From a virus (Duplodnaviria; Caudoviricetes), in the IMG/VR virus record IMGVR_UViG_3300024331_000007, positions 128,001 to 192,000 of that record: a stretch of 64,000 bases of DNA; one strand, given 5' to 3'. The position numbers and the translations under genes were made by a program. Shown here piece by piece: positions 4,989-53,692 of this stretch (its first letter is position 1; each line of letters begins with the position of its first letter). The notes beneath the pieces were generated by a model that saw only the letters and a list, made by a program, of their open reading frames with translations, was not told where the DNA came from and ran no database searches.

Positions 4989-5053
4989 GCTGTTGCTCCA
5001 ATAAGCGATAGGGTAGTTGGGGAGGCCAATCCCGCGAACTACATCTATTTATA
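4989..5053 (-). ncRNA. late promoter plus conserved structured leader of GIY-YIG gene (copy 1)
   Basis: TATAAATA-G-AT-GTAGTT-CGC-GGGA/TCCC-C-AACTAC-CCTATCG-(GCT...GGAGC)-AACAGC-ATG; same architecture at 17432, 49882, 53622. Confidence 0.8.
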
Positions 5054-6070
5054 AGGGTTCCTAAATTGTTGCTGTACCCTTATCAGAGCCGCGTTATCGG
5101 TTGCATTTTTTAGCAAATGAGTAACACAAAATAACGAACCATATTTTACATATGCCGCATTTATGTCTTTGACATCCCATTGTGGTATACTCACACTCCA
5201 CCCATTATCAATAGCGGTATCAATTACACTATTATTTCGTATCACTTTTCCATTTTTATCTATTTTGGGTTTATTTAGCCCAGCCTTGTCAAGATCGGGA
5301 ACAACAATGATTTTCTTTTGAAGATCGCAAATCATTTCCGTTTGCTCGTCGCTAATTTCGTTGTGCATGACGGATAAACATTTCACACTTAGCGCATCCA
5401 GTAATCCTTCAGTGACAAATACCCATTCATGCTCTGGTTGAACATATTCCATACCAAACACAAATTCACAGGTCTTTCTCATGATATATCGCATCCTCTC
5501 GGCTGGATTGATCGAGCGAGCAGAATAGCCGATGATTGTATCGTGAAGAATGAATGGCAGAATTACGCGGGAACGATATACAAGATCAGGAGAAACAAGA
5601 AATGGAAAATCGGCGGGTGTAAAACCGCGAGTCTTCAAAAAGTTAACATGTGCTGGATACTTTGAAATATCATTTTCCAACAGCGTGCAATCTTTGGGCA
5701 TTTCAATTGCTTTAATGTCACGGCGTACAATTGCCCTCGGTTCAAACCCAGCTTCTTTTGCTGCGCGTAGACTTTCCAACTTGAGTTGACTAATCGTACT
5801 TTCGTCTACATTTAACCATTTAAGAAGATTGATAAACTTTGGATACAGTGGCTTGCCCGGTGTATATGAAGCTGTAGCGCCACAATTAAAACAATGAAAA
5901 CTACATGATCCTGCTGCGTTATCGAATTTCATTCCGCCACGCCCGCGTTTGTCTGGACTTTGACCGCGATGTTCACAGCACGGAGCATTACGAGACAGCC
6001 AGCCGCTTGGAGAGGTTTTAACTCTGCCGCGATGCCAATAATCGTATGCTGTTTGGGCGATAATGTTCAT
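5045..6070 (-). CDS. dnaG: DNA primase, T4 gp61/DnaG-like
   Basis: N-terminal Zn finger (CCEH...HCFNCG), TOPRIM VTEGLLDALS and PDLDKAG; start trimmed to MNIIAQ. Confidence 0.9.
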   Translation of the reverse strand: MNIIAQTAYDYWHRGRVKTSPSGWLSRNAPCCEHRGQSPDKRGRGGMKFDNAAGSCSFHCFNCGATASYTPGKPLYPKFINLLKWLNVDESTISQLKLESLRAAKEAGFEPRAIVRRDIKAIEMPKDCTLLENDISKYPAHVNFLKTRGFTPADFPFLVSPDLVYRSRVILPFILHDTIIGYSARSINPAERMRYIMRKTCEFVFGMEYVQPEHEWVFVTEGLLDALSVKCLSVMHNEISDEQTEMICDLQKKIIVVPDLDKAGLNKPKIDKNGKVIRNNSVIDTAIDNGWSVSIPQWDVKDINAAYVKYGSLFCVTHLLKNATDNAALIRVQQQFRNPYK

Positions 6071-6145
6071 TCTTGTGAGTATAGCACAAAAAACAGGTCG
6101 CGTCCACAACGAACAGCGACCCACCCAAACTGAAAAAGTCAATTA

Positions 6146-6979
6146 CTAAATACGGATGTTGCCCCCGCTAATGTAAGTCGCGACATTGGATGGGCTTAGG
6201 TTTCCAGAACGAGAAGGATCAATGGAATCCAGAACGAAACGAATTTGGGCAAAGCTGCCCGAAACAGATTGAAACACCAAACCAGCGGCATTTGCATAAA
6301 AAGTTGACGATACATTCGCCCAATCGGTGGGCAATGGAATTGAAACCATTGTTCCCTGAGCGACGATGTTTCCAGTATAGAGAACCAAATTTGCGCAAAG
6401 AGTTGCCAGAGTGCTGTTCATTGGTCTGTTTGTTAGATCGATTGGATTGCTAGTAACGCCCACATCAACAACATCCAAAAATGTTACTGGTGTTGGATCG
6501 GGATATGCAAGAACTGGACCTTTTGCCAGCGTTGTTGTTAAACGAGAACCAAAGTTGTCATTGATGTAAATTGGATAAATGTTAAGATTTGCGTCAGTTC
6601 CAGTCAGCGCAATTTCATACATACCAAAATCCAACGGTGCTAGTTCGCTGGGCGTAAACACGATTTCAACTACTCCATTCGTCGAGTCAATAGATGTGGC
6701 GTTTGCAGTAATCAGTTCATTCTGGGTGTTTGGCTCGAACAAGCCGCACTGAATTGCAACATTACTGTTGGCAAGATTGATGCGCTTCTGGTCTGAATTT
6801 AGACACTGAATCTTGATCGGATTGTTGACACCTGAATAGAGAACTAGCGGAGTACTATACACGGTTCGGACCTCATTATAGCCTACGACTCCAATACCAC
6901 TTGTTGCATCGGAGATGCCGACAATGTAGGCTAATATCTTGGTTTGACGGCCTTCAAAATAGGCTTTTACGGTCTGCAT
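6146..6979 (-). CDS. late, probably virion-associated beta-rich protein
   Basis: 277 aa, beta-strand-like composition, GCTAAATA late-promoter-like site directly upstream. Confidence 0.55.
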   Translation of the reverse strand: MQTVKAYFEGRQTKILAYIVGISDATSGIGVVGYNEVRTVYSTPLVLYSGVNNPIKIQCLNSDQKRINLANSNVAIQCGLFEPNTQNELITANATSIDSTNGVVEIVFTPSELAPLDFGMYEIALTGTDANLNIYPIYINDNFGSRLTTTLAKGPVLAYPDPTPVTFLDVVDVGVTSNPIDLTNRPMNSTLATLCANLVLYTGNIVAQGTMVSIPLPTDWANVSSTFYANAAGLVFQSVSGSFAQIRFVLDSIDPSRSGNLSPSNVATYISGGNIRI

Positions 6980-6984
6980 ACCTA

Positions 6985-7003
6985 TATTTAGCTTTTATAA
7001 ATA
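6985..7003. promoter_or_regulatory. back-to-back T4-type late promoters
   Basis: GCTAAATA on minus (6985-6992) and TATAAATA on plus (6996-7003) between divergent genes. Confidence 0.7.
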
Positions 7004-7036
7004 CTTTCGGCAATCAAAACATTCTAAAGGGAAAAC

Positions 7037-7417
7037 ATGACAAGCAAGCTCTATCAAACACTTTCGGAAAAATTTCCATTCATTTCAGTCATACTTTACG
7101 GGGATTCTCAGGACGAGTATGTTGGTATCATCCAAAACGCGGACAATATCATTACCAGCATCTACGATTTCGGTCTTTTGAAGTCCGACGAAGAAAAACA
7201 CCTGTTCCTCGAATTGGGCGAAAAATGGTACTACGAGTCCAATCGTCAATTGCCCATCAACATCTATTTGAAGGATGAATGGCAGTCTTTTGACAAGGTT
7301 TTCAAGACTTTTATCACAAAGGAACTTCAAGTAATTCACGGACCATCCACAAGCCTATCGGCGCTCTCTCAGAAGAAAAAACGCCGGTCGATTATGGTTG
7401 TGAAGAAGTTGAGCTAA
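7037..7417 (+). CDS. conserved phage hypothetical protein (late)
   Basis: 126 aa plus-strand ORF behind TATAAATA, with GGGAAA RBS-like site. Confidence 0.75.
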   Translation: MTSKLYQTLSEKFPFISVILYGDSQDEYVGIIQNADNIITSIYDFGLLKSDEEKHLFLELGEKWYYESNRQLPINIYLKDEWQSFDKVFKTFITKELQVIHGPSTSLSALSQKKKRRSIMVVKKLS

Positions 7418-8991
7418 TTTTCGTACATTGACGAGCTACGAGTTTCATGTCGAGTTTTTCGGCCTAGATGATTGTTTTTTTGAATGTAAACCAACTTGTT
7501 CAGAAGATCGGGATGCGTTCTCATCAAAATTTTCTTCTGTTTTCGCAATCTGGAATCCATTCTCAGAGGCTTATCATATGCAAACTGCCACGTTGAAAAA
7601 TTCCTGATTGGATAGTAACCATCATCCACAATTGTACCAACGAAGTTCATCTTTTCAGAAAATTTCTTGTTCGGTTGAGAAAGGCGGATAATATTCATTG
7701 TCTCAATCGCCTGATTAAATGCCGGGGCTTCGTTTTGTAAAATGTTTCTTGTGAATCGATGCTTGTCATTATGTGCTGATCCGCTAACCACATTGGTTCG
7801 CTCGGCCATCTTTTCCATTTTGTTTAGATTCGTTTTGTTTGCTGGAAGGATGACAACAGAATACGAATCAACTCGTTCATTATTTTTACCAGTTCTCGCG
7901 CTAAGCTGTCTGTTATACTGTTCGGCTGTTATTCTTCCAGCAGCCAATTCAAATACTTCAGGCAAAGCGTATACTTTTACGAAATGTCCCCTTTTATCAT
8001 AGTGGGCCACGCGCAGAAATGCCTGAGCCATGCTATTGTAGCACGAAGTTTCTGAACGATAATCATGCCAAAAATAAAGCAGGTTGTGAAACCCAACCTC
8101 AGTTGAACGACTACATGTTCTATCAATTACAAGCAACGTCAATACGCCAACCTTTGCATCTGGCGCGTCATCTTCCCACTCGTATGCTGTGGTTTTGTCG
8201 ATAAATTTGCATCGTATTCCAAGATTGTGTAATTCTTGAATCACAGCATGGTTGTTTTTGAGTTTAATACGATCTTGACTTCCGCCAATGTCTCGTAGAA
8301 CTGAAATAATTTTTCCAGTTTTCTTTCCGTTTCGAACCCAATCTTTGCAAATGTCAAGACCATGCGGAGTTAATCCATCATTGTCATAAAACTGTTCAGG
8401 CGCAGTTACAAGTTTTTTGTCTAGGAACCATTCTGCTCCGCGATATGATGATGGCGGTAAGAATGGTCGAGGAGCGGGGAAATTTTTGGAGAACTCTCTA
8501 CAATAAATTAGTTCTTCATTTGTGGCTGAATAATATCTGAATCGAACCAATTCGCCTAGTTTTTCTGTCTTCCGATAAAATGTTCCCAGACATTGTTTCT
8601 TGGCAGTTCCGTAATCGCTTTCGTCAATATGCACGTAGCAAAGAATGCCAGATGAAACTTTAGCCTTAATTTTTGCAACCTGAATCGAAATTTTGTCCAT
8701 CGAAGACACGATCAATGGTGTGATTCCATAGCTTTCCATTTCTTCAATTTGCTTCTTAGTATCTTTGCGCTGGAGAGCAGTTACATAAAAATGATGACAT
8801 TTGGCAAAATTTCTAGGTCTTGCCTTCGTAAACAACGATGCAATTTCAACCATGATTCTTTTGCCCGATTTGACTGGAGCTAGGATAGCCTCGTGTCTAT
8901 TGGCCGTCGCTATATATTTTGTCGTGTGGTCGTACAATTCAAAACGATTTGTTTTAAAATACAAAAGATCATGAAGATTTTGAGAACTCAT
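7414..8991 (-). CDS. divergent SF2 helicase-like ATPase
   Basis: APVKSGK (Walker A-like), HIDESD (DExD-like), YSAT (motif III), QAFLRVAHYD (motif VI-like). Confidence 0.55.
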   Translation of the reverse strand: MSSQNLHDLLYFKTNRFELYDHTTKYIATANRHEAILAPVKSGKRIMVEIASLFTKARPRNFAKCHHFYVTALQRKDTKKQIEEMESYGITPLIVSSMDKISIQVAKIKAKVSSGILCYVHIDESDYGTAKKQCLGTFYRKTEKLGELVRFRYYSATNEELIYCREFSKNFPAPRPFLPPSSYRGAEWFLDKKLVTAPEQFYDNDGLTPHGLDICKDWVRNGKKTGKIISVLRDIGGSQDRIKLKNNHAVIQELHNLGIRCKFIDKTTAYEWEDDAPDAKVGVLTLLVIDRTCSRSTEVGFHNLLYFWHDYRSETSCYNSMAQAFLRVAHYDKRGHFVKVYALPEVFELAAGRITAEQYNRQLSARTGKNNERVDSYSVVILPANKTNLNKMEKMAERTNVVSGSAHNDKHRFTRNILQNEAPAFNQAIETMNIIRLSQPNKKFSEKMNFVGTIVDDGYYPIRNFSTWQFAYDKPLRMDSRLRKQKKILMRTHPDLLNKLVYIQKNNHLGRKTRHETRSSSMYEN

Positions 8992-9043
8992 CGAATATCT
9001 TTCCTTTCATGTATGGCAATTTTAAGTATACACCCAATCACAA

Positions 9044-9583
9044 CTATTGTATATCAAAATTTTGGTTTAGGCCATCAATCTCTTGATCAATTTGATTTAT
9101 CTCTTCAATGGCCTTTTTCACGGCTCCGCTTAAATCTGTATCCACAAAGTCACGAATGATCGTCATGATTTCATCTACGGCATCGGGAGGATTCCAAACT
9201 TTCAAAACAACATTGTCATCTTCGCCATTACCATCTGGAACATCCAAACGCGGAAGGTTCGGCAACACCGCTAGAATTTGCCAAATCTTGTCTTCCACTT
9301 CTTTGAGAGCCTGTTTTTGAATTGGAACCTCGACCTTAATTATAGCCGCCTCATTCAAAAATGGTTCAATTGGTTGCTTGGCTCTCTTTGCCATCGCAAT
9401 GTCTTCGCTGATGACATTCAGGCGAGCAAGATTGATTTCCAGAGCAGCAATCAAAATCTTTCGATGCGCATTCAAATCCAACACTTCGTCAATCTTGTCT
9501 TCAGGCTTCGTTTTGTCATGGCGCAATGCAAGTCTGCGCTTGTACTCTTCGGGATTCGCTTCGATTTCTTTTATATCATGCAT
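9044..9583 (-). CDS. stand-alone seryl-tRNA synthetase N-terminal (tRNA-binding coiled-coil) domain protein
   Basis: MHDIKEIEANPEEYKRRLALR...LAVLPNLPRLDVPDGNGEDDNVVLKVW follows the SerRS N-terminal pattern; no class II catalytic domain follows. Confidence 0.8.
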   Translation of the reverse strand: MHDIKEIEANPEEYKRRLALRHDKTKPEDKIDEVLDLNAHRKILIAALEINLARLNVISEDIAMAKRAKQPIEPFLNEAAIIKVEVPIQKQALKEVEDKIWQILAVLPNLPRLDVPDGNGEDDNVVLKVWNPPDAVDEIMTIIRDFVDTDLSGAVKKAIEEINQIDQEIDGLNQNFDIQ

Positions 9584-10079
9584 ATTGCACCAACTTTACT
9601 AGCATTTTTACAGAATCAGTTGGACATTCAATGTGATCCAGTGCATGAATGTCACCTTGTACCGCTGCCATTTGCACTTCTTCACATGGCCTCTTGATGT
9701 ATTTGATAATTGTTGGTTGTTCTGTCACTGCCGCTATTTGCGCTTCAACACAAGCATATGGCATGTACGCAATTGCATACGGAGCACAACTGACAGCAAA
9801 AAGTTGCATTTCTTTTCCAACGGGTGTCATATATTCCAGAACTGACAAATCGCGATCAATCGCATATCGCTGAACATCTTTGTGTGGACTTTTGATGAAT
9901 CGAATGTTTCGCTGATTCTTTTTTACCGCCGCCATTTGAACGGGCAACTTTGGATTTCGAATCAGCTTCAAACGAAACGGTTGTTCGAGCACAGCCGCAA
10001 TCTGTTCCTCGACTGTTTCCATGCGAGGAACTTTTTCATACGTTTCTGTGCTGAACAATTTTCTTGCCATTACGACCAC
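9576..10079 (-). CDS. helical repeat protein (DUF4116-like QxAAVxxxxxxIxYIxxP repeats)
   Basis: About six ~22-aa repeats such as VQMAAVKKNQRNIRFIKSP. Confidence 0.65.
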   Translation of the reverse strand: MVVMARKLFSTETYEKVPRMETVEEQIAAVLEQPFRLKLIRNPKLPVQMAAVKKNQRNIRFIKSPHKDVQRYAIDRDLSVLEYMTPVGKEMQLFAVSCAPYAIAYMPYACVEAQIAAVTEQPTIIKYIKRPCEEVQMAAVQGDIHALDHIECPTDSVKMLVKLVQYA

Positions 10080-10527
10080 TCCATTAAAAATAAAACATAT
10101 GCTGCTTTACTTTTAAACTTGATAAACGTGTATCCCTCGCCGATAACGTCAGATCGAATCAGAGTTGCATTATATCTGTCTTTGTATCTCTGATTAATCT
10201 CTTTCCAAGACAATCTCGCCGAATCCCCGTTGACAACAGCTACCCATGCTTTAGTATGAGCGGCATATATGTCTTCGATTTTAACAGTTACACTCACAAC
10301 CACTCCAACAGAAAAAGCATGTATTCCGATTCTGATTTGAAAACAACCTCTCGGTATCCACTTTTATCAGCTATCAATGTTACGTTGTATCTCTGATTAA
10401 AAAAATTTTCAATGCCTTCGCTGATAATATCTGGACATGATGTTTGAAAATCTAAAACGGCAACATCCCATGCTTTGCCTAATGGCTTGTGTACTCCCCA
10501 ATCTGCTTTTACCGTGTAACTCATCAT
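10070..10527 (-). other. two tandem paralogous small ORFs (10070-10303, 10294-10527)
   Basis: Both 77 aa, share KAW...F..RYN.TLI...FKS...Y.LFL.EW. Confidence 0.65.
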
Positions 10528-10534
10528 TGCCTAT

Positions 10535-10816
10535 CTATTCCGCTAGCTTAGCTAGCATTGCAATTTCGTCAGTTGGATTCTTGATATAGTGAATGGCTTT
10601 TCCATCTTGATTCACCGCTGAAGATTGTGCCTCTGGAGATGGAGTCTCAATGTATTGAATATAGAGAGGGTGTCCATCCAATGCCGCCAACTCTTCATCG
10701 ACTGACGGGCGTTTAATGTATCGAATTGTTGATGGTTCTTCGGCAATCGCAGCAAGGCGGCTTCGCTTTGTCATGCACATCAACGTCAAACGAATTACAT
10801 TCGGCATTATTTCCAT
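10535..10816 (-). CDS. helical repeat protein, paralog of 9576-10079
   Basis: RLAAIAEEPSTIRYIKRPS, ELAALDGHPLYIQYIETPS repeats; ends AMLAKLAE. Confidence 0.6.
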   Translation of the reverse strand: MEIMPNVIRLTLMCMTKRSRLAAIAEEPSTIRYIKRPSVDEELAALDGHPLYIQYIETPSPEAQSSAVNQDGKAIHYIKNPTDEIAMLAKLAE

Positions 10817-10824
10817 AGGAACTC

Positions 10825-11446
10825 CTAAACTGTTAGTAGGTGCATCATGATTTCATCTTGTTCTGCTTTTTCAATGTCTTCAACCTGCATCCAAAATGGG
10901 GTATAACCATCATGAACAGCGACCCAAACACCGCCATACTGATTTTCAATTTCATCGGGCGATTTGCCTTTATACTGTTCCAAACTTATGAAAGTGTCAT
11001 AGTTTGGATGTTTGCCAATACTTAAAATTTTCACGATGTATTTCTGCCCACCCCGAAACATTCTGACGTATTCGCCAACCTCGAAAGTCTCTTCCATTTG
11101 ACACTCGCTATCAGTTTCCATTTTCGTGAAGTTTTCCAATAACTCCATGATTTGACGCAATCTGCAATTTCAATTCTTTTGGGTCAAACTTTTTTCCATC
11201 TGTGATAGCAATAAGAATTGAATTTGTTTTGCGAAGATTTGTGACTAAAACATTTTGAAGATCGCGAGTCAAGGTAGCCTTTTCCCGATAAATTCTTTCA
11301 GTTTGGGCCATTAGTTCCGCTTTGATTTCCGCAAATCTCTCAGGAGATGCGGAGCGAATTTCTTCAAATGTATCTCTTATATCCATATCTTTTCCTTTCA
11401 AATGCTTCAAAACTTTGGGATGGCGATTTTCTAGCCATCCCAACAC
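10825..11446 (-). other. two hypothetical ORFs (10825-11160 SH3-like; 11111-11446 coiled-coil)
   Basis: ORF track; packed minus-strand run. Confidence 0.5.
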
Positions 11447-11453
11447 TTGCCAA

Positions 11454-12563: not shown

Positions 12564-12678
12564 TGGTCGTTTTCCCTTTCGATACTGTGTGATTTTGACT
12601 TCGTTTCGGGAGCTTGTTTGCCTCTCCCCATCAACATGTATAGAATATCAAAGTTGATGGCAAAAGTCAACCAAATTT

Positions 12679-17431: not shown

Positions 17432-17499
17432 ATAAATACAAATGCGATTCGCGGTGTTGAAGCACCCAATCGCCCTAACGCTATTATGGAGCGCCAGCT
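17432..17499 (+). ncRNA. late promoter plus conserved structured leader of GIY-YIG gene (copy 2)
   Basis: ATAAATA...GCGATT-CGC-GGTG/CACC-C-AATCGC-CCTAACG-(CGCT...GGAGCG)-CCAGCT-ATG. Confidence 0.8.
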
Positions 17500-18162
17500 A
17501 TGGATATTTACTCCGCAAAATTTTCCCAAGACAAAAAATTTTATGTTTACGAATATCTTCGCGCACATAAATCAAAATATGGTGATATTGGAAGTCCCTA
17601 CTATGTAGGTAAAGGAACTGGTAGTAGAGCGTTTTCAAACGATCATACCACCAAACCGCCAAAAGACAAAAACAATATTCGTGTTTCAAGTTTGATGAAC
17701 GAAGCTGACGCTTTTCAAAACGAAATGTTCAAAATTATGTTGTCGGGCCGTATTGATCTTGGAACTGGTTGCTTACGAAATAGGACTGACGGCGGCGAAG
17801 GTTCGTCTGGAGCAATTCGTACTCAAGATACAATTCGTAAATGCGTAGAAGTTAGAAAACGAAACAATTCTTACAAACGAACTAAAGAAGCAGACAAAAA
17901 AGCCAATGCAACAAAATTTAAAAATGGAACTCATCGTCGTAGCAAAGACTCTCTTATAAAACAAATCAATACTAGGCGAGAAAAAGGTAACTTGAATACC
18001 TGTACTCTTGAAAGTAGAAGAAAATCAGTAGAAACACGAAAAGCAAATGGAACTCTCGGTCGCACCAAGGAATCTATAGCAAAAGGTCTTGCCACACGAA
18101 TATCAAAATATGGCCCATTTGCAAAACCAAAGTTTGAATTGTATTTGCCTTGTATTCTTTAA
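17500..18162 (+). CDS. free-standing GIY-YIG (LEM-3-like) endonuclease
   Basis: FYVYEYLR...PYYVGKG..R, GCLRNRTDGGEG, basic repeat tail; antisense to neighbours. Confidence 0.85.
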   Translation: MDIYSAKFSQDKKFYVYEYLRAHKSKYGDIGSPYYVGKGTGSRAFSNDHTTKPPKDKNNIRVSSLMNEADAFQNEMFKIMLSGRIDLGTGCLRNRTDGGEGSSGAIRTQDTIRKCVEVRKRNNSYKRTKEADKKANATKFKNGTHRRSKDSLIKQINTRREKGNLNTCTLESRRKSVETRKANGTLGRTKESIAKGLATRISKYGPFAKPKFELYLPCIL

Positions 18163-18169: not shown

Positions 18170-18480
18170 CAAGGCTAAAACCTCGGAGTAGTTTTTAGGC
18201 TACTGGCACCGCTACGCGGTTGAGAGCAACTGTGTAAGTTGCAATCTCGGCATTGCGGCCACTGTTGTTCACAGCAATTATAGTTTCCATTCCCTTAACG
18301 TCAGGCTTGGTACTCGGTTCGTAACTAACGCTATATTTGACCCGTCGAAACCTTGGCACCCACATTTGAAAAACGTAATACATAAATTGGTGTAGGTGGC
18401 GGGAATCGAACCCGCGTCCGAATCAGTATAACGTGAGTCTCTCTCACACGAACGTCATTCGCAAAAACATCTTTACGAAT
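18170..18480 (-). ncRNA. ssrA: circularly permuted (two-piece) tmRNA
   Basis: Acceptor piece first: T-arm GCGGG-TTCGATT-CCCGC then CACCTAC-A-CCA ending at 18388. Then a 24-nt spacer. Coding piece starts at 18363 (GTGGGTG-CCAAGGTTTCGAC). Acceptor stem GTGGGTG/CACCTAC has G3:U70. Inter-piece helices CGGGTCA/TGATTCG, TATAGCG/CGTTATA, ACGAAC/GTTCGT. ATAATT precedes resume codon GCT; tag 18195-18275 = AVNNSGRNAEIATYTVALNRVAVPVA; stop codon lies in a hairpin. Outer ends approximate. Confidence 0.92.
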
Positions 18481-34390: not shown

Positions 34391-34465
34391 TGGTAGCCGA
34401 CCCCAGATTTGAACTGAGATAGCTAGTTTCGAAGACTAGCGTCCTATCCGTTGGACGAATCGGCC
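34391..34465 (-). tRNA. trnR-UCG: tRNA-Arg (UCG)
   Basis: Cloverleaf: CTAGT-CTTCGAA-ACTAG, T-loop TTCAAAT, encoded CCA. Confidence 0.9.
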
Positions 34466-34472
34466 ATAAATT

Positions 34473-34547
34473 TGGTAGGCAATGAAGGAATCGAACCTTC
34501 GTCTACGATTTAGAAGATCGTCGTCCTGTCCGTTGAACGAATCGCCC
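34473..34547 (-). tRNA. trnR-UCU: tRNA-Arg (UCU)
   Basis: ACGAT-CTTCTAA-ATCGT, GAAGG-TTCGATT-CCTTC, encoded CCA. Confidence 0.92.
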
Positions 34548-38383: not shown

Positions 38384-38459
38384 TGGTGGATGCGGCAGGG
38401 ATCGAACCTGCGACAAACTGATTAAGAGTCAGCTACTCTACCAACTGAGTTACGCATCC
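38384..38459 (-). tRNA. trnK-CUU: tRNA-Lys (CUU)
   Basis: GGATGCG/CGCATCC, GCTGA-CTCTTAA-TCAGT, TTCGATC, encoded CCA. Confidence 0.95.
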
Positions 38460-46019: not shown

Positions 46020-46102
46020 TGGAGCTAATGGAGGGAATCGAACCCACGGTGTTTGTATGGCAGTTTACAAAACTGCTGCTGTCGCCACTGAGCCACATTA
46101 GC
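46020..46102 (-). tRNA. trnT-UGU: tRNA-Thr (UGU) with enlarged variable loop
   Basis: GCTAATG/CATTAGC-T-CCA; GCAGT-TTTGTAA-ACTGC; T-loop TTCGATT; 83 nt. Confidence 0.8.
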
Positions 46103-46744
46103 TTAAATTGTTCGGCCTTTATACCATCCAACAGGAATCTCTGAATCTTTGGCCGTCTTCTTATTTATGCTTCCGTTAGTAATCCACATCGTTCCAAACT
46201 GAGTATTCTTTGGACCTTGAGAATGGCCTATTCTTGCGAGAGTTGCATATCTTTTCTTATTTGCTTCTTCAGTTTGAGCCTGTTGAATTGCCTTTGCTTG
46301 ATACTTTTTACGATCTTCTTCGCTCATTGCGAATATTCCCCGTTTTAAGTCTCTAGCTCTCACTCCACCCTTCGAATTGATTTCTTGTTTTCGTTCTTTC
46401 GAGTAGCCGTGTATCCCAAGTTTCTTTTTGACAATTACCAATCCACCCGCCAACTGCTCTTGAGGTGTCCAACCGCCCTTCCCACCCAAATGAACATTAT
46501 AGGTGTCTTTACGAGCAATAAATTCTTCGTTAACCAACTCTCGCTCTTTTTCAAACATTTCGGAGCGTGTAACAAAGTTGAATAACGTCACTCGTTTGAA
46601 GTTTTCAGGTCCGTACTTCTTTACAGCCTTTCGGAAGATGCGACCAGACCCTAAGTATCCATCATCAATATTATCGGTAATGTGTGTTCCGATGTATATT
46701 TTTCCATTGATGAGATTTGTGGTTTGGTACACTGTGTAATGCAT
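46103..46744 (-). CDS. Seg-like GIY-YIG homing endonuclease inside tRNA cluster
   Basis: MHYTVYQTTNLINGKIYIGTH...DDGYLGSG; start trimmed; stop codon abuts tRNA 5' end. Confidence 0.88.
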   Translation of the reverse strand: MHYTVYQTTNLINGKIYIGTHITDNIDDGYLGSGRIFRKAVKKYGPENFKRVTLFNFVTRSEMFEKERELVNEEFIARKDTYNVHLGGKGGWTPQEQLAGGLVIVKKKLGIHGYSKERKQEINSKGGVRARDLKRGIFAMSEEDRKKYQAKAIQQAQTEEANKKRYATLARIGHSQGPKNTQFGTMWITNGSINKKTAKDSEIPVGWYKGRTI

Positions 46745-46750
46745 TTGATT

Positions 46751-46825
46751 TGGAGCCTCGTGACGGAACTGACCCGTCAACTAAACTTTACAAGAGTCTT
46801 ATTTTTCCAGTTAAACTAACGAGGC
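46751..46825 (-). tRNA. trnT-UGU: tRNA-Thr (UGU), degenerate T-loop
   Basis: GCCTCGT/ACGAGGC-T-CCA; AGACT-CTTGTAA-AGTTT; T-loop GTCAGTT is non-canonical. Confidence 0.65.
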
Positions 46826-46829
46826 AAAA

Positions 46830-46904
46830 CATCGCAGTGGTTCGGGGTGCTGTCCTCATATTGAGGCCCGTATATTGCTTACGTCTACCAGTGAATCCAC
46901 TGCG
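46830..46904 (-). ncRNA. tRNA-sized structured element between two tRNAs, unassigned
   Basis: Closing stem CGCAGTGG/CCACTGCG; inner CGGG/CCCG and CCTCA/TGAGG; contains TGGTAGACGTAA. Confidence 0.4.
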
Positions 46905-46911
46905 GGAATGT

Positions 46912-46986
46912 TGGAGCCGAATAACAGACTTGAACTGTTTCCTTATCTTTACGAGAGATATATTCTACCAGTTAAAATAATTCGGC
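46912..46986 (-). tRNA. trnT-CGU: tRNA-Thr (CGU)
   Basis: GCCGAAT/ATTCGGC-T-CCA; TATCT-CTCGTAA-AGATA; T-loop TTCAAGT. Confidence 0.85.
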
Positions 46987-47348
46987 AAAACTTATATTTT
47001 GGGGTTAATAGACTTCAATGCCATATACTTCCCCGCCGATCCACGTATCCTTTCTTACCATTGTTCACCGCCGATGTAGGTATCTTTGCTGATAATCTTA
47101 ATCTTGCGGCCCATACCATCACACGAATCAAACTCGTGACCGCGAATGCCTGTGTTCGGAGCGTCAAAATCATGTCCAATCGTTAGGGTCATATCGTCTC
47201 TCTCGGATGGAGCTAGTTTGTTTCTGTTCGTTTAAGAAATCTTCCTTAGCCCAAAGTCTCTTTTTCCATTCTGGTAACTGTTCGTACTTTTTCTCAGCCT
47301 GTTCAAAAACTCTTACTAACCACTTGCCTTCCATAACACATCCTAATT

Positions 47349-47423
47349 TGGAGCCGATTTAGGGAATTGAACCCTAGTTTCAACCATACCAAGGTAGCGT
47401 AATAGCCACTATACGAAATCGGC
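47349..47423 (-). tRNA. trnT-GGU: tRNA-Thr (GGU)
   Basis: GCCGATT/AATCGGC-T-CCA; CTACC-TTGGTAT-GGTTG; T-loop TTCAATT. Confidence 0.88.
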
Positions 47424-47438
47424 GTAAATCTAAAAATT

Positions 47439-47513
47439 TGGCTGGTCCACAAGGATTCGAACCTTGAATGTCTGAGTCAGAGTCAGAAGTGATAGCCGTT
47501 TCACCATAGACCA
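47439..47513 (-). tRNA. trnQ-CUG: tRNA-Gln (CUG)
   Basis: TGGTCTA/TGGACCA-G-CCA; TCTGA-CTCTGAC-TCAGA; TTCGAAT. Confidence 0.92.
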
Positions 47514-47520
47514 ATATACT

Positions 47521-48087
47521 TTATTTAGCACACGAAACATGTCTCTTTGCCGTCCATGTGTCTTTTGCACCATTTTTGTGCTCATTTACCCATTTTATTA
47601 TGTATTCCTTCAACTGTTTATGCCATTTTACTTTGTCAAAACCAGTTGGAGTCCAATGTTGACTGTCACTTCTCTGCGCATTCTGCAAATACTCGTTAAT
47701 CTCACCTGTCATTGATACCATCGGCAAATAAATCCAACGAGGTGTGTAAGCAAAAGACAGCTTATCAGCAAAACACAACTGAGAAGGGTCTTTATCATGC
47801 TTTTTGGCATAGTATCGACTATGATACAGGCAAAAATCGCCCCATTTGTCGCCAAACAGTTTGCGCATAATTCCTGCGCCAAATTCTACGTGTGTCTCGC
47901 CTTCTGGTCCATCCATGTTTGGTTTTCCAAAATAGCCAAAATCGTGTACAAAAAATGCAACCCATAATCTAGGGTCTAATGGAAAACCATACAACTCATA
48001 CCACGCTCGTGCCACAAAAAATGGATGTAGGAAAAAGCAGTGAGCGCCAAATAAAACGCTCTTTGTTCCAATTCTCATAATCCTCAA
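47521..48087 (-). CDS. HD-like hypothetical protein
   Basis: LHP...VHDFGY...H...YHSR...ADK pattern. Confidence 0.55.
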   Translation of the reverse strand: MRIMRIGTKSVLFGAHCFFLHPFFVARAWYELYGFPLDPRLWVAFFVHDFGYFGKPNMDGPEGETHVEFGAGIMRKLFGDKWGDFCLYHSRYYAKKHDKDPSQLCFADKLSFAYTPRWIYLPMVSMTGEINEYLQNAQRSDSQHWTPTGFDKVKWHKQLKEYIIKWVNEHKNGAKDTWTAKRHVSCAK

Positions 48088-48089
48088 AT

Positions 48090-48322
48090 GTTTGGGGATT
48101 CTTCAGAGACATAGTGTGAATATAAAACTGAAGAATCCCTCAAACGGGGGAGTCAACGGTTTCGGGTCCGTTAACGCCTCTCCACCAATCGGTTAGAATG
48201 AACCGATACATTGGGCAAATAGCTCAGAAAATTCTCTGAACGATTTACGTCTACCACTCAGTCAAAAATGGACTGAGACATTGCCGATGTAGCCCCGCTC
48301 CACTCACTCGTACGGAGTGAGA
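48090..48322 (-). ncRNA. multi-hairpin structured RNA; 5' part (48238-48322) has a hatchet-ribozyme-like layout
   Basis: At least six hairpins in 235 non-coding nt; the ribozyme resemblance is from memory and untested. Confidence 0.5.
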
Positions 48323-48325
48323 CGA

Positions 48326-48490
48326 TTAATGAAATAAATTTAATGCGTTCTTCAATGTAATTAAGGCATTCGCCGCATTACATGCCGCTTGAGAGAAACG
48401 CATTGAATCTTGTGAATCCTGCGCTTCCGAAGCCTTTTTAATTAAGGCTTCAACTTGTTTTGCTACTGTTTCATTCATTGTTTCATCCAT
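48326..48490 (-). CDS. small hypothetical protein (54 aa, below ORF-track cutoff)
   Basis: Read by hand: MDETMNETVAKQVEALIKKASEAQDSQDSMRFSQAACNAANAL...; GGAG upstream. Confidence 0.6.
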   Translation of the reverse strand: MDETMNETVAKQVEALIKKASEAQDSQDSMRFSQAACNAANALITLKNALNLFH

Positions 48491-48626
48491 TGGGTTTTAT
48501 CTCCAAATTGTGACGTTGTGTTACGTTAATGATATTCCACGGCAAAACATTGAAACTTTTGGTTATGTGGAACGGCTTCATGAACTTATATCTAAGTATG
48601 CCCTATATTTTAGACAATGTCAACTA

Positions 48627-48959
48627 CTATATTCGAAACGGAGGTTGAAATAGCTTACCATAATGTTTCTGAACAACTTGCAACATTTTTTTACGACCAG
48701 ATGGATTTGCGCTGTGAACTTGAACACCATTCACTGGCCAAACATTGTTTTCTTCCATCCAACACAATATATCGTAACCAGTTTTTTCTTCATCAGCATA
48801 ACCCATTGTTTGGGTCATATTCAAATCGTGATCAAGTGACGCAACTTCGACTTCTCCTGTCGCCAGAAGTTCAATTGCCTCTTCGTATGTTTTTACCCAC
48901 ACCGCGCCTATTGCGCCGTGATGAAATGGGTTTCTTTGATCGTCCAGCCACAGAAACAT
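48627..48959 (-). CDS. cyclic-phosphate-processing receiver-like domain protein
   Basis: LWLDDQR.P, WVKTYEE, SLDHDL, TGYD...W, VHSANP.G. Confidence 0.8.
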   Translation of the reverse strand: MFLWLDDQRNPFHHGAIGAVWVKTYEEAIELLATGEVEVASLDHDLNMTQTMGYADEEKTGYDILCWMEENNVWPVNGVQVHSANPSGRKKMLQVVQKHYGKLFQPPFRI

Positions 48960-49112
48960 TTTTCTTCCTCTTCTTTGGTTGAGCTAGTTTTCGAACTTTA
49001 TCACTGCTCAATGCATCCACTAATGATTTACGCATTCCCAACGGTAACGGATCATGTTTGTCGTGGTAGGTCAAATAACTCAATATTGCCGCGTCTGAGA
49101 ACGAAACGGTTA

Positions 49113-49715
49113 TCATTTTTCCACCACTATAACAGGAACGCAATCTCGTCCGCAGCTTTCTGGCGTCTCGTATGTCATAAACCTACCATCATGCTCAGAG
49201 ATTTCTTTGTGATAGTCTCCGAGAATTGCAAACCATTGTCCATTCGACCGCCATACAGTATCATCACCGATTCCATCAAACTCGTAGGTATCGTACAGCA
49301 TTGCATATCCGCTCTTGGAAAACTTAATCATCGCCTTAACTTTTGTATTTTCTGGTAATGTTGCGGCGGTATAATTTGCCGCAATAACTAATTTGGTTCC
49401 ATGTTCCGTCTGTACGAAAGACGTGACTTTATTGTCTTTGTTGATTGGATCGGCGACTACCACAAGTGCCGCATGTTCTTTTGCTCTGCGAAGTTCAATA
49501 GGAATGATTACTAGTGATGCAACAACGATAAAAATTCCAACAGTAATCCAAAGAGTTTTCTTAAACTTTGATCGGGTGTCCCATAATGGATCGCGATCAT
49601 CATGCTGCATTTGCACACCTTGCATACCACCGACTTGCATACCAGTATTCTTCGAACCAATCATTCCATTCGGTACTCCACCCATATGTTTTACCTTTTC
49701 TTTCGTATCCGACAA
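49113..49715 (-). CDS. single-TM membrane protein
   Basis: One TM segment (LWITVGIFIVVASLVIIP). Confidence 0.55.
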   Translation of the reverse strand: MSDTKEKVKHMGGVPNGMIGSKNTGMQVGGMQGVQMQHDDRDPLWDTRSKFKKTLWITVGIFIVVASLVIIPIELRRAKEHAALVVVADPINKDNKVTSFVQTEHGTKLVIAANYTAATLPENTKVKAMIKFSKSGYAMLYDTYEFDGIGDDTVWRSNGQWFAILGDYHKEISEHDGRFMTYETPESCGRDCVPVIVVEK

Positions 49716-49831
49716 AACTTGGTTGTCAGTTTAAATATTTTGGCGTCATAGTTATTGCCAAGTCAATACCCGATTTTAGGGCCAAGAATCAACGCCCCTG
49801 CCACGCAACTATAAGTTGTGACATCTTCCAC

Positions 49832-49860
49832 AGTATAACCAAACATCAAACTATTGTCAA
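49832..49860 (-). promoter_or_regulatory. sigma70-type early promoter
   Basis: TTGACA-N17-TATACT. Confidence 0.7.
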
Positions 49861-49881
49861 GAAATATATCAGTGTATTAGA

Positions 49882-49946
49882 ATAAATAGATGTAGTTCGC
49901 GGATTCGCCGTCCCAACTACCCTATCGTCTCTGGAGACAACAGCTT
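49882..49946 (+). ncRNA. late promoter plus conserved structured leader of GIY-YIG gene (copy 3)
   Basis: ATAAATAGAT-GTAGTT-CGC-GGA/TCC-C-AACTAC-CCTATCG-(GTCT-CTGG-AGAC)-AACAGC-TT-ATG. Confidence 0.8.
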
Positions 49947-50693
49947 ATGCCTATTTACTCTGCAAAATATTCACAACTCAAAGAGTTCTACGTCTACAAA
50001 TATCTTCGTTCGCGAAAATCCAAATTTGGTGAAATCGATAGTCCGTATAATATCGGCAAAGGTAAGGGGAAACGCGCTTTCTCTAAACAGCATACTATAA
50101 AACCACCCAAAGATAAATCAAAAATTCAATTTATCTCGGAAAATATGAATGAGGCCGATGCCTTTCAACTTGAAATGCTACTCATTCATTGGTTTGGCAG
50201 AATCAACAAAGGAACTGGTTCTCTTCGCAATATGACAGAAGGCGGAACTGGTTGTACGGGAACTGTTATTTCCGCCGAAACTAGAAAAATACAATCTCTA
50301 CAACGAGCAAATAAAATGTGGGTCAATGATGGCAATAAACAACTATTGATTCGCCCAAATTTATTCCGTCAATATAAACAAAAAGGTTATAAAAATGGTA
50401 TGTTGAAATCTTCAGTGAAAGAGCTTGTTTGGATGCATGATCCTAAAACAATGAAATCTACAATGGTCAAAATTTCAAATATTTCTTCGTGTATCTCCAA
50501 AGGTTACATTTTAGGTAGACCCTCTCCATCGGAAGAAACAAGAACAAGGATCAGCAAATCTACTAAAGGAAAGCAAATTACACAAACTCACAAAGACAAT
50601 ATAAGAAAATCTAAGCTTGGAAAGAAACGAAGCGCAGAAGCCTGTAAACGAATTAGCGAAGGAATAATCGCAGCCAAGAAACGCAAACTCTAA
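49947..50693 (+). CDS. free-standing GIY-YIG (LEM-3-like) endonuclease
   Basis: FYVYKYLR...PYNIGKGKG.R, GSLRNMTEGG.G, NUMOD-like tail. Confidence 0.85.
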   Translation: MPIYSAKYSQLKEFYVYKYLRSRKSKFGEIDSPYNIGKGKGKRAFSKQHTIKPPKDKSKIQFISENMNEADAFQLEMLLIHWFGRINKGTGSLRNMTEGGTGCTGTVISAETRKIQSLQRANKMWVNDGNKQLLIRPNLFRQYKQKGYKNGMLKSSVKELVWMHDPKTMKSTMVKISNISSCISKGYILGRPSPSEETRTRISKSTKGKQITQTHKDNIRKSKLGKKRSAEACKRISEGIIAAKKRKL

Positions 50694-51352
50694 ATTCCGT
50701 ATTGCTTTTGGGTCATGGTTTTTACTGGTTTTCTAACGGCAATCATTTTTGCTTTATGAAACTGCACATTGACCGTATCCCAGTTTACAACATTCCACCA
50801 AGCAGCAAGATATTCGTCTCTTTTATTCAAATACTGCCAAAGATACGCATGTTCCCATAAATCGATACCAATAATAGGAACGTCGCCATTCGTTAATGGG
50901 CTATCTTGGTTCGGCAACGACACAATTTCCAGCTTGTCTTTCGGATAGATGAGCCAAACCCAACCAGAACCAAATCTCTTTGTGCCAGCCTCGTTAAACT
51001 TTTTCTTGAACTTGTCAAATGTGCCAAAGTCTTTTGTGATTTGTTTGGCAATGTCTCCAGTTGGAGGACCTCCGCCTTTTGGCTTCATGAGATTCCAAAA
51101 CAAGGTATGATTTGCATCTCCGCCGCCTTGATTGCGCACTGCATCCTGAATAGCCTTTGGCATTTTCTTCCAATTGGTTACCAGAATCTCTGGCGAATAC
51201 TTCTGATACTTTGGATAATCCTTTAATGCTTCATTCAGCTTGTCAACATATGCTTGATGATGCTTATCGTGATGCAGCTTCATGATTTCCTCACTGATAT
51301 GAGGTTCAAGAGCGTTGTATGCGTATGAAAGTTCAGGTAGTTTGTATGCCAT
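50690..51352 (-). CDS. sodA: Fe/Mn superoxide dismutase
   Basis: LPELSYAYNALEPHIS, HHDKHH, NHTLFW, FGSGWVWL, DLWEHAY; all four metal ligands present. Confidence 0.95.
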   Translation of the reverse strand: MAYKLPELSYAYNALEPHISEEIMKLHHDKHHQAYVDKLNEALKDYPKYQKYSPEILVTNWKKMPKAIQDAVRNQGGGDANHTLFWNLMKPKGGGPPTGDIAKQITKDFGTFDKFKKKFNEAGTKRFGSGWVWLIYPKDKLEIVSLPNQDSPLTNGDVPIIGIDLWEHAYLWQYLNKRDEYLAAWWNVVNWDTVNVQFHKAKMIAVRKPVKTMTQKQYGI

Positions 51353-51985
51353 ATTATAATCTCGTCTTTTGCAGCGCCTTAATTACAGCCGTCGCCATCT
51401 TCAGGTATTCTTCATATTTCCAAGCTGTCGAAGGGTTTCCCTTCACATTTTTTAAATAACGCCAATCATATTCGCCTTCAACCTTGCACAATGTTTTTGC
51501 AACGGCCTTAATTAATTTTTCATGATCAAACTTTTTAATTGCCATGCTTCACTCCATCAACTGCTTCGCCCAATGCAGTCGTATAAATTCCCGCTGTCAT
51601 TGAGGCATCAACTATATCCTGCTTCAACTTTCCAATTTGTACTGTAAGACCATCGGCGCGTTCAGTCTCTTTTCTGATTTTCTTTTTGCACTCGTAGTGA
51701 ATATACGATTCAAGATTCGCCGCGTCTGTTTCCAAATCTCCGATTCGCTCAACAAGAGCCATGAGAAATTCTGGAGAGATTGGCATTCTCTCAGCGTCTT
51801 TGCTGGCAAGGTCCAAACAATGATTGTACAAACCCTGCAAATCTTCTGGCACGTTCATTATATCCATTCCTGTGAACCGCGATACGAAAATCTATGATTC
51901 ATCAATTCCTGTAAATCTTGATGCGAGTGATAGACGGGCATTGTTCTTGCCCATCTAACTACCATCGCAATTAGTAATCTTTGCA

Positions 51986-52549
51986 TTAATAAAATTCCAC
52001 CACTTGATCGGCAAGTCCGTACTTTACGGCTTCCTTTGCCGTCAACCAAACATCTTGCGGTGGAAGCAAATACTTTTTTATCTGTGGTTCTGTTAGACCT
52101 GTGCAAAGTTTGATATGAGTCATTACGCGCTGCGTTGCATTATTGAACTCAGTAACCTTGGCCATCAGTTCATGTTCTTTACCGTGCGATCCCCACGAAA
52201 ACTGGTGTGACAGAATCGCAGTGTTTCTTGTGATGAACCGCTTTCCCTTAGTTCCAGCGATGAACGCGAACAATCCAGCACTGCTAATTTGTCCCAATCC
52301 ATATGTACAGATCGGAACGCGGCTTCCTTTCATAGTATCAATTAATGCGAAACAGCTTGGCATTTCTCCACCCGCTGAATTGAAAATCATCTTCATCATT
52401 TTCGGCGGTGTGTCCATAAGATTGCGTTGAAGGATAAACGTTATCGCCTCGCCAGTTGAGCTAGGGTCAAAATCCTTGTTGAAAAGAAAATAGTGGTGAT
52501 CTTCTAATGTTGGGATGTTTGGAACTTTAACATCTTCTTGTAGGCCCAA
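51986..52549 (-). CDS. clpP: ClpP-family protease subunit
   Basis: FNSAGG, GQISSAG (catalytic Ser), SHQ (His), D.WLTAKEAVKYGLADQV. Confidence 0.85.
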   Translation of the reverse strand: MGLQEDVKVPNIPTLEDHHYFLFNKDFDPSSTGEAITFILQRNLMDTPPKMMKMIFNSAGGEMPSCFALIDTMKGSRVPICTYGLGQISSAGLFAFIAGTKGKRFITRNTAILSHQFSWGSHGKEHELMAKVTEFNNATQRVMTHIKLCTGLTEPQIKKYLLPPQDVWLTAKEAVKYGLADQVVEFY

Positions 52550-52572
52550 TGTATTCTCCGTTTAGCTGAAAT

Positions 52573-52594
52573 GGCTGAGGGTTTGCCCTCAGCC
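52573..52594. terminator. terminator-like hairpin
   Basis: GGCTGAGGG-TTTG-CCCTCAGCC. Confidence 0.55.
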
Positions 52595-52600
52595 TCAAAG

Positions 52601-53140
52601 TTACTTCTTTGCTGCTGGTGCTGAAACATTTGACGCTGCCGTGGCCTTCTTCATTGCCTTCACTTCATCTGGCGTAAGCTTAATCCACTGCTTTGAAGAA
52701 GCACTGTACACAACATCGTCTCCCCACTTATTTGCATCCTTAACTTTTTGAATTGCTTTTTGAATCTTCTCTTGGTCCTTATCCCATTCTGGCCCGTATT
52801 TTGCATTCAATTTGTTTTGAAGTTCTTTCAACTCATCCTGATATCTTGCGGAGAGGAGATTTAAATCACCGAGTACAGAAACAACCTCTGAATCACCGGG
52901 AATGGTCGAATCCCCCAATGAAATTTCCTTTGGCGTCAACACTTCGCCTTTTGGTCCTTCGACTGTCTTGACTGGTATTTGTTTTATGGTGGCATCAACC
53001 GCAGTATTATCAGACGAAGAATGCAATGCATCCTTTGTTTCGGATGATTTTGGTGTGGTCTGCGCTGCGAGAAATGAAGAAAATAACACCAATAGTAAAA
53101 TTGTAAATGAACGATGCATGGATTCTCCTAATATAAACAA
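52601..53140 (-). CDS. exported hypothetical protein
   Basis: Signal-peptide-like MHRSFTILLLVLFSSFLAAQ. Confidence 0.55.
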   Translation of the reverse strand: MFILGESMHRSFTILLLVLFSSFLAAQTTPKSSETKDALHSSSDNTAVDATIKQIPVKTVEGPKGEVLTPKEISLGDSTIPGDSEVVSVLGDLNLLSARYQDELKELQNKLNAKYGPEWDKDQEKIQKAIQKVKDANKWGDDVVYSASSKQWIKLTPDEVKAMKKATAASNVSAPAAKK

Positions 53141-53152
53141 CTATATCTCTTC

Positions 53153-53182
53153 ATTATAAGTTCAACGCAAAGAAAGAGTCAA
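53153..53182 (-). promoter_or_regulatory. sigma70-type early promoter
   Basis: TTGACT-N18-TATAAT. Confidence 0.65.
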
Positions 53183-53183
53183 G

Positions 53184-53603
53184 TTAAAGTTTTATCTCAG
53201 TCGGCATTCCTCTTTCATCAAAGAAACGAACCCGACGAACTCCATATTCCCTTACCAAATTCATGCACTTCTCGCAAGGACGCGAACACCCATATTTAAC
53301 AATCGTTTGCTGTGCATTTGTGGTGGTACGGCTAACGTACAAAATAAGATTCTTCGACTTCTCATAGTGCCAACGACGAACTAGACACATTACTTCAGCA
53401 TGAACATTTCCGTTGTAAGTATCATACTGTGCATGTTTAGAAGTACGAGTCCAATCATTAAACCCAATAGCAAGCAAATTTGAACCAGCGTACAGAGAAG
53501 CCCCGAGTTTTTGACCAACAGCCGATCCAGTGCTATGCATAGATGCGGCAGTAGCAGTATCAAATCCCCTTTTCCAACTTTTGCTGATTTTCATTTTATC
53601 CAT
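53184..53603 (-). CDS. cytidine/deoxycytidylate deaminase-like zinc protein
   Basis: HAE...SRPCEKC motifs. Confidence 0.8.
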   Translation of the reverse strand: MDKMKISKSWKRGFDTATAASMHSTGSAVGQKLGASLYAGSNLLAIGFNDWTRTSKHAQYDTYNGNVHAEVMCLVRRWHYEKSKNLILYVSRTTTNAQQTIVKYGCSRPCEKCMNLVREYGVRRVRFFDERGMPTEIKL

Positions 53604-53621
53604 GATTTCCTACTTTCAGTG

Positions 53622-53692
53622 ATAAATAGTTATGCAGTTCGCGAGTCTCGTGAACTCCAACTGCCCTAACGCCATTTCGAGACAATCAGCAT
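53622..53692 (+). ncRNA. late promoter plus conserved structured leader of GIY-YIG gene (copy 4)
   Basis: ATAAATAGTTAT-GCAGTT-CGC-GAGT/ACTC-C-AACTGC-CCTAACG...GAGACAATCAGC-AT-ATG. Confidence 0.8.

Follow-up and report, generated by a model that had tools for sequence, protein, structure and literature searches.

The window analysed in this study, a stretch of 64,000 nucleotides (nt), comprises positions 128,001-192,000 of the 359,890-bp IMG/VR record IMGVR_UViG_3300024331_000007, which belongs to a soil phage. It harbors four copies of a cassette of about 80 bases, each of which ends at the start codon of an endonuclease-like open reading frame (ORF). On balance, it is probable that this cassette, with promoters facing both ways, makes a small cis-antisense RNA which restrains the nuclease. 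The evidence consists of the RNA fold, its strand preference, the selection acting on the nucleotides of an inverted promoter box and the geometry of the promoters; from these we infer that the RNA is produced, where it ends and that it represses. An initial annotation of the window had already placed four copies of a structured leader in front of four nuclease genes. Its coordinates were borne out: the pattern TTCGCG-N6-24-CCAA-NNN-CCCTAWCG matched the window at exactly these four places, compared with 0.00 matches expected from 100 shuffles, and an endonuclease-like ORF begins directly after each copy.

The RNA fold and its strand

A covariance model (R1) was built from 14 copies. With this model 16 copies were found in the whole phage record and 10 further ones in five other viral records. 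Additional copies were gathered by pattern scans of IMG/VR, by one metagenome scan and by one profile search, resulting in at least 202 distinct extended copies from uncultured viral or metagenome loci (at least 160). The metagenome scan with the strict pattern yielded mostly chance matches, with four true copies among the matches listed. Most of the family counts given below refer to 187 copies from 161 loci, which were fully parsed.

The annotation had described two stems, P1 and P2, on the basis of compensatory changes. These changes were seen in the window as claimed, and both stems also covary across the family. The CGC bulge, which had been regarded as invariant and unpaired, is kept except for six of 192 copies that exhibit CAC; its middle G pairs with the lone C following P2, so that the bulge is not fully unpaired. 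The supposedly invariant linker CCTAWCG did not hold. Its family consensus is YCTAWYR, and it is base-paired with the CAG(C) located before the ATG. Linker and CAGC are thus the two strands of one 8-bp helix, P3. CTA lies opposite CAG in 175 of the 187 copies and TTA opposite CAA in 11, with one exception. The W of the linker covaries with the base preceding CAGC, and the inner three pairs of P3 covary widely. An upstream ATG that the window copies have in common is not kept across the family.

P3 discloses the strand on which the fold is kept. Among 935 cells (the inner five positions of the helix in 187 copies), the non-Watson-Crick combinations on the sense strand were A·C in 112 cases, G·U in one and others in 17, although A·C and G·U had been weighted equally in the choice of the register. 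The invariant A of CTA faces the C of CAG on the sense strand, and the P3 helices of the window together contain nine A·C and zero G·U. Since an A·C on the sense strand corresponds to a G·U wobble on the antisense strand, the helix is sound only in the antisense orientation. The six CAC variants of the bulge likewise give G·U on the antisense strand.

The antisense fold was the more stable one in 168 of the 187 copies, with a mean minimum free energy (MFE) of −16.7 kcal/mol versus −13.2 kcal/mol for the sense fold, and the shuffle z-scores were −2.0 and −1.2, respectively. The gap lies entirely in P3, which reaches a mean of only −2.8 kcal/mol on the sense strand, while P1/P2 is nearly equal on both (−9.2 sense, −9.4 antisense kcal/mol). 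RNAalifold predicted P3 in the antisense orientation only. In this orientation 99.1% of the cells are paired and the covariation amounts to 0.368 compared with 0.139 in shuffles, none of 500 of which reached 0.368; with the partners slid against each other it did not exceed 0.123. P1 and P2 are almost purely Watson-Crick and should therefore be foldable on both strands, as a 5′ hairpin of the mRNA and as a 3′ hairpin of the antisense RNA. Judged by these sequence data, the conserved fold matches the antisense rather than the sense strand.

We also considered a cis-acting leader on the sense strand, be it a hairpin sequestering the ribosome-binding site (RBS), a switch in which a protein or ligand binds the CGC bulge and the linker, or a stabiliser of the mRNA 5′ end. 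P1/P2 folds as well in this direction and begins at the predicted +1 position, the Shine-Dalgarno sequence (SD) lies within P3, and the invariant CGC with its lone C, only partly explained otherwise, is a possible site for an RNA-binding protein common to all copies. Such a leader is quite unlikely, however, given the weak sense P3 with its A·C excess, the failure of RNAalifold to predict P3 on this strand, the pairing of the linker and the lack of an Rfam match. The pocket of unpaired CGC and CCTAWCG that had been suggested for a ligand or protein shrinks, with the linker paired, to two to four conserved unpaired bases, which are too few. A riboswitch or other ligand-binding leader was rejected as a candidate on the pairing of linker and CAGC, the strand preference and the Rfam result. 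A catalytic RNA, likewise proposed, was rejected, as there is neither an Rfam match nor a conserved unpaired core. A guide RNA was rejected as well: the variable segments are loops of 4-7 nt and too short for this purpose, and the nucleases possess DNA-binding modules of their own (NUMOD3).

Promoter boxes and start geometry

The late promoter that the annotation had placed before each copy was found again: ATAAATA lies 3-5 nt ahead of P1 in all four cases. In the family the sense box TAAATA is present in 179 of the 187 copies. Conservation continues beyond the ATG into the first codons, where 162 of the 187 copies contain TATTTA and most of the others TACTTA. As TATTTA is the reverse complement of TAAATA, the core of the sense promoter, we regard it as an inverted late box. 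It is situated 5 nt from CAGC in 111 copies.

Three different reading frames accommodate the inverted box, with the N-termini M-x-I-Y (108 copies), M-x-F (18) and M-Y-L (22). Codon 2 of the main frame ends in T in all 121 copies, distributed over 14 different codons (background 34%), and the isoleucine codon is ATT in 107 copies, ATA in one and ATC in none, against a background of 42/41/17%. The codon-2 T, the ATT bias and the use of three frames together argue for selection on the nucleotides. A leader acting on the sense strand leaves this retention at promoter spacing unexplained. Downstream of each box there are five bases, the last of which is T, and next a G (sense, 137 of 179; antisense, 111 of 162).

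That these boxes function as late promoters is suggested by the phage genome itself, which encodes a gp55-like late sigma factor (E 9.5e-66; phrog_12791 and phrog_234). In 43% of its occurrences ATAAATA has a same-strand ORF start no more than 90 nt downstream, compared with 8-16% for four control words of like composition; TAAATAA, which contains the box core, gave 30%. The arrangement TAAATA-N5-ATG precedes 22 ORFs of at least 100 amino acids (aa) in the phage genome, while each other spacing from 0 to 12 occurs zero times or once. These 22 genes apparently produce leaderless late mRNAs starting 6 nt after the box. Examples in the phage record are 92053 (plus), 93654 (plus), 134979 (minus) and 243931 (minus), and three of the 22 ORFs are GIY-YIG-like nuclease genes without a cassette (290135, plus; 96015, minus; 107617, minus). 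The cassette would accordingly possess, as far as can be told from its sequence, an antisense promoter which resides inside the 5′ end of the gene and faces the sense promoter.

The predicted antisense RNA and the neighbouring genes

The elements of the four window copies are as follows (window coordinates).

Copy 1
4976..5053, minus: whole cassette from sense late box to inverted late box; model R1, 79.4 bits
5046..5053, minus: sense late promoter TATAAATA; spacer to P1 of 3 nt, compared with the usual 5 nt in the family
5013..5042, minus: P1/P2 hairpin; P1, 5037-5042 with 5013-5018; P2, 5030-5033 with 5020-5023
5034-5036, minus: bulge CGC; lone C at 5019
4990..5011, minus: P3 helix, CTATCGCT (5004-5011) with AGCAACAG (4990-4997); two A·C on the minus strand, equivalent to G·U on the plus strand; SD GGAG at 4996-4999
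4976..4983, plus: inverted late box TATAAATA inside nuclease codons 2-4; N5, then G at 4989
4989..5053, plus: predicted antisense RNA of about 65 nt if ending in the U-rich tract, start and end being predictions; MFE −21.6 kcal/mol with 8-bp P3′ and P1′/P2′ hairpin
4257..4988, minus: homing endonuclease gene, 243 aa; NUMOD3, phrog_314

Copy 2
17432..17511, plus: whole cassette; R1, 74.2 bits
17432..17438, plus: sense late box ATAAATA; N5 to the P1 G at 17444
17444..17473, plus: P1/P2 hairpin, GCGATT/AATCGC and GGTG/CACC
17475..17497, plus: P3 helix, CTAACGCT with AGCGCCAG; two A·C on the plus strand
17505..17511, minus: inverted late box GTAAATA, codons 2-4
17432..17499, minus: predicted antisense RNA of about 67 nt with presumed ends; MFE −22.1 kcal/mol
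17500..18162, plus: endonuclease-like gene, 220 aa; phrog_15526

Copy 3
49882..49958, plus: whole cassette; R1, 72.6 bits
49882..49888, plus: sense late box ATAAATA; spacer to P1 of 3 nt
49892..49920, plus: P1/P2 hairpin, GTAGTT/AACTAC and GGAT/GTCC including one U·G
49922..49943, plus: P3 helix, CTATCGTC with GACAACAG; two A·C on the plus strand
49952..49958, minus: inverted late box GTAAATA, codons 2-4
49882..49946, minus: predicted antisense RNA of about 65 nt with presumed ends; MFE −19.1 kcal/mol
49947..50693, plus: endonuclease-like gene, 248 aa; phrog_15526

Copy 4
53622..53704, plus: whole cassette; R1, 69.4 bits
53622..53628, plus: sense late box ATAAATA; N5 to the P1 G at 53634
53634..53664, plus: P1/P2 hairpin, GCAGTT/AACTGC and GAGT/ACTC
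53666..53689, plus: P3 region; three A·C and a bulge on the plus strand, pairing only on the minus strand; weak SD (GAG)
53698..53704, minus: inverted late box ATAAATA, codons 2-4
53622..53692, minus: predicted antisense transcript, which may continue into the neighbour gene 53184-53603 (minus)
53693..54421, plus: homing endonuclease gene, 242 aa; NUMOD3, I-HmuI NUMOD-like, phrog_314, also phrog_15526

In PHROG, phrog_314 is labelled 'homing endonuclease', and phrog_15526 is related to it. Copies 2 and 4 encode proteins with 37% identity, and a sequence search of PDB with the copy 4 protein gave no match. A fifth copy at 254626-254704 (plus) of the phage record, with its core listed at 254648, is identical to copy 4 in P1, P2 and linker. 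Its boxes are weaker than those of copy 4 (CTAAATA on the sense side, TACTTAT after the ATG), and its nuclease protein differs.

Some other features of the window were noted. A full-length match to a permuted tmRNA (Rfam RF04321, 87.1 bits versus a gathering score of 47) is located at 18234-18453 (minus), 72 nt past the stop codon of the copy 2 nuclease; this tmRNA is phage-borne and two-piece. Eight tRNA genes, all on the minus strand, reside at 34394-34547, 38387-38459 and 46023-47513 (Rfam RF00005, 50-71 bits). Between copies 3 and 4 we recognized by eye an Fe/Mn superoxide dismutase-like ORF (50690-51352, minus; motif DLWEHAYL) and a ClpP-like ORF (51986-52549, minus).

According to the proposed mechanism, transcription of the nuclease gene would begin from the outer box (N)ATAAATA, with the first base of P1 or a nearby one as the 5′ end of the mRNA. 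The inverted TAAATA in nuclease codons 2-4 would direct transcription of the other strand, beginning with the complement of CAGC or a short distance upstream of it. Provided that its 3′ end lies in the U-rich stretch complementary to the sense promoter, this antisense RNA should be 63-69 nt long. Its 5′ part would form the 8-bp P3′ stem-loop, containing two conserved G·U pairs and an anti-SD CC in the loop, and its second part the bulged P1′/P2′ hairpin followed by the U-rich complement of the sense box. By its geometry, the predicted RNA is fully complementary to the 5′-terminal 53-57 nt of the nuclease mRNA, SD included, the overlap stopping 0-2 nt short of the AUG. The antisense RNA would most likely lower translation of the nuclease, invite cleavage of the duplex and add head-on transcriptional interference.

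Burial of the RBS as in T4, to which the annotation had likened the element, was not supported. The SD does lie in P3, but in the T4 scheme it would be hidden in read-through transcripts only, whereas long and late transcripts alike have a predicted SD accessibility of 0.42. A temporal gate of the T4 type, in which read-through RNA hides the start region by pairing AUAAAUA with UAUUUAU and late RNA lacks the 5′ half, could build on the fact that the two boxes are perfect 7-nt complements, and the same logic has been documented for I-TevI, segB and mobE (PMC2988022). Of all explanations considered here it is the most improbable. The AUG, too, is about equally accessible in long and late transcripts (0.43/0.46), the helix would consist of seven A-U pairs closing a loop of approximately 70 nt, and the box variants do not covary, as the fifth copy with its CTAAATA and TACTTAT demonstrates. 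Moreover, in two thirds of the cases the gene runs against its neighbours and hence receives no sense read-through.

The antisense transcript may also, or instead, provide a promoter and leader for a divergent neighbour. The upstream neighbour is divergent in 109 of the 161 loci, where it starts a median of 64 nt past the cassette, and co-oriented in 52. Counted over these loci and the phage genome, 57 nuclease genes run against both of their neighbours and 20 are co-oriented. These orientations would suit an inverted box that drives or restores transcription of the neighbour gene on the other strand, with the fold as its stabilising 5′ leader; the nuclease would then be repressed only incidentally or not at all. 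The same applies to the gaps, only 31% of which hold a TAAATA of their own, and to copy 4, whose neighbour (53184-53603, minus) starts 18 nt beyond the cassette. There is also a precedent in T4, where endonuclease genes embed promoters for downstream host genes (PMC2988022). We nevertheless consider this explanation rather unlikely. Box and fold are kept equally in the 52 co-oriented loci, in which the upstream gene ends at the cassette and there is nothing to drive; the inverted box is retained alike whatever the orientation of the neighbour (85% and 88%). The neighbour of copy 3 (49113-49715, minus) is faced by a strong sigma-70-like promoter of its own (11 of 12 matches). This promoter, TTGACA and TATACT separated by 17 nt, is located at 49832-49860 (minus) beside the sense box of copy 3. 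Finally, a leader for unrelated neighbours leaves the conserved anti-SD stem-loop unexplained.

Several points weigh against a restraining antisense RNA. P1/P2 carries almost no strand signal. As a terminator, the P1′/P2′ hairpin is a doubtful, weak candidate: its tail contains on average 6.7 U in 12, interrupted by A, and its stem is bulged and AT-rich at the base. In copies 3 and 4 the antisense hairpin was not picked up by a simple scan for terminators. Copy 4 and about one in four of the 109 divergent loci have fewer than 40 nt between the cassette and the start of the neighbour, whose transcription would need to pass through the cassette, so that termination is unlikely to be efficient. 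As both promoters appear to be of the late class, the timing logic of the repression is hard to see. The geometry in the window is looser than in the family, with the sense spacer of 3 nt in copies 1 and 3 and predicted antisense starts lying 1-2 nt before GCUG in copies 2-4. The copies of the cassette share descent and the counts do not represent independent events; besides, most copies were gathered with patterns that fixed P1 and the bulge.

An extension of the antisense mechanism, which we put forward only tentatively and hold to be improbable as yet, is that the antisense RNAs of the 16 copies act in trans on each other's mRNAs. They would then constitute a genome-wide throttle on the nucleases, with the outward promoter serving the neighbour genes. 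Trans action is conceivable because P1, the bulge and the ends of the helix are nearly identical among the 16 copies.

Nuclease families and known control systems

The annotation had pictured the element as a portable cassette ahead of homing endonuclease genes, and in agreement with this the covarying element was found before unrelated nucleases. Behind the gathered copies we identified two GIY-YIG-like groups (68 and 10 genes), an HNH group (phrog_655, 36), a group without Pfam or PHROG match (36), a DUF723/DUF4379 group (phrog_559, 5) and 16 others including further HNH and GIY-YIG types. They represent at least four families which are mutually without detectable sequence similarity. All proteins headed by the cassette start with M-x-I-Y or its frame-shifted equivalent; the same 5′ module including the first four codons heads unrelated nuclease families. 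Because these families share it, the cassette belongs to the expression system of the phage rather than to one enzyme. For the same reason it is not an autoregulatory site for the cognate nuclease, another function that had been proposed. A conserved element 3′ of the genes was not found behind 16 nuclease genes, and the cassette is therefore a 5′ module.

A degenerate cassette, lacking the TAAATA box and exhibiting CAC instead of CGC, was noticed in the phage record (103326-103721, plus). It heads an ORF of 106 aa without Pfam or PHROG match, the stop of which overlaps the ATG of a GIY-YIG-like ORF without a cassette of its own.

Sharing of one 5′ module by unrelated families might also be expected from an element acting at the DNA level, either a strand-specific single-stranded DNA hairpin or recombination site by which the module is exchanged, or a target or landing pad. 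The nearly exclusive Watson-Crick pairing of P1/P2 would agree with this, and DNA hairpins tolerate G·T as well. Still, we regard such an element as very unlikely: both ends of the cassette are exact late boxes with the N5 start geometry of this phage, the genes are not followed by a conserved 3′ partner site, and no transposase or recombinase travels with the cassette.

Control of endonuclease expression in T4 and its relatives offers a close comparison. RBS-sequestering hairpins with embedded late promoters have been described for I-TevI, I-TevII, I-TevIII, segB and Aeh1 mobE, together with autorepression by I-TevI (PMC2988022). The cassette resembles these systems in the late promoter directly upstream, in the structure around the SD and in the theme of low expression. 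Unlike in the T4 hairpins, no sequence from upstream of the late start pairs with its SD, and the selected fold lies on the other strand; unlike in I-TevI autorepression, an operator for the cognate nuclease is excluded by the sharing of the cassette among unrelated families. CfrI of cyanophage S-PM2, an antisense RNA of approximately 225 nt spanning F-CphI and psbA (Millard et al. 2010, summarised in PMC2984593), likewise runs opposite a homing endonuclease gene in a T4-related phage. According to this summary, CfrI is a single locus without known function; it differs from the cassette in not being a repeated 5′ unit with a built-in late promoter.

The view of the annotation that the element cannot be assigned to an Rfam family was confirmed. 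Rfam gave no match to the cassette, neither with the whole window at the gathering score nor with five 3-kb loci at E values up to 5. Megablast and blastn searches against 50,697 GenBank phage records were without a match, and full-text searches of the literature revealed no description of the motif. The primase encoded next to copy 1 has relatives in PA5oct, Atu_ph07 and Rak2-like jumbo phages at 23-30% identity. Model R1 was run on five cultured jumbo phages which share this primase at that level (Atu_ph07, Phosso, PA5oct, XacN1 and GAP32) and detected no cassette, the best match having an E value of 0.24. The cassette may thus be considered an unregistered candidate RNA family with strong covariation.

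In its predicted operation the cassette is reminiscent of RNA-OUT/RNA-IN of IS10/Tn10. In this system promoters are arranged face to face, and a small structured antisense RNA overlaps the 5′ end of the transposase mRNA and blocks its translation. Common to both are an antisense promoter located inside the 5′ end of a gene of a mobile element and facing the sense promoter, a small structured antisense RNA of about 65-70 nt (a predicted one in the case of the cassette), 5′ ends overlapping across the translation-initiation region, and, by analogy, a block of translation as the expected outcome. The cassette differs from RNA-OUT in lacking any sequence or Rfam similarity to it and in being associated with a phage host and a homing endonuclease gene. 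Furthermore, both of its promoters are gp55-type late boxes, its antisense RNA would contain two hairpins and stop just before the AUG, and it is shared by unrelated nuclease families, with 16 copies in one genome. We therefore suppose that it works like an antisense control of the IS10 type, of which it is not a homologous member.

To our knowledge, restraint of free-standing homing endonucleases has been known for only a few genes of the T4 family, where it is achieved by RNA hairpins and autorepression, and we know of built-in antisense control of the IS10 type so far only for bacterial transposases. If the antisense interpretation is correct, the cassette would represent a different way of protecting a phage from its homing endonucleases. 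It is found with several mutually unrelated families of nucleases across a large group of uncultured jumbo phages (at least 160 loci). The inverted box would be a clean example of a promoter residing within the first codons of a gene and fixing the N-terminus M-x-I-Y of the protein. Should action in trans also apply, the cassette would be an exchangeable control module imposed by the phage lineage on all its selfish nucleases, and where an insertion is inverted, it would repay the phage through its outward promoter, which would drive the adjacent phage gene.

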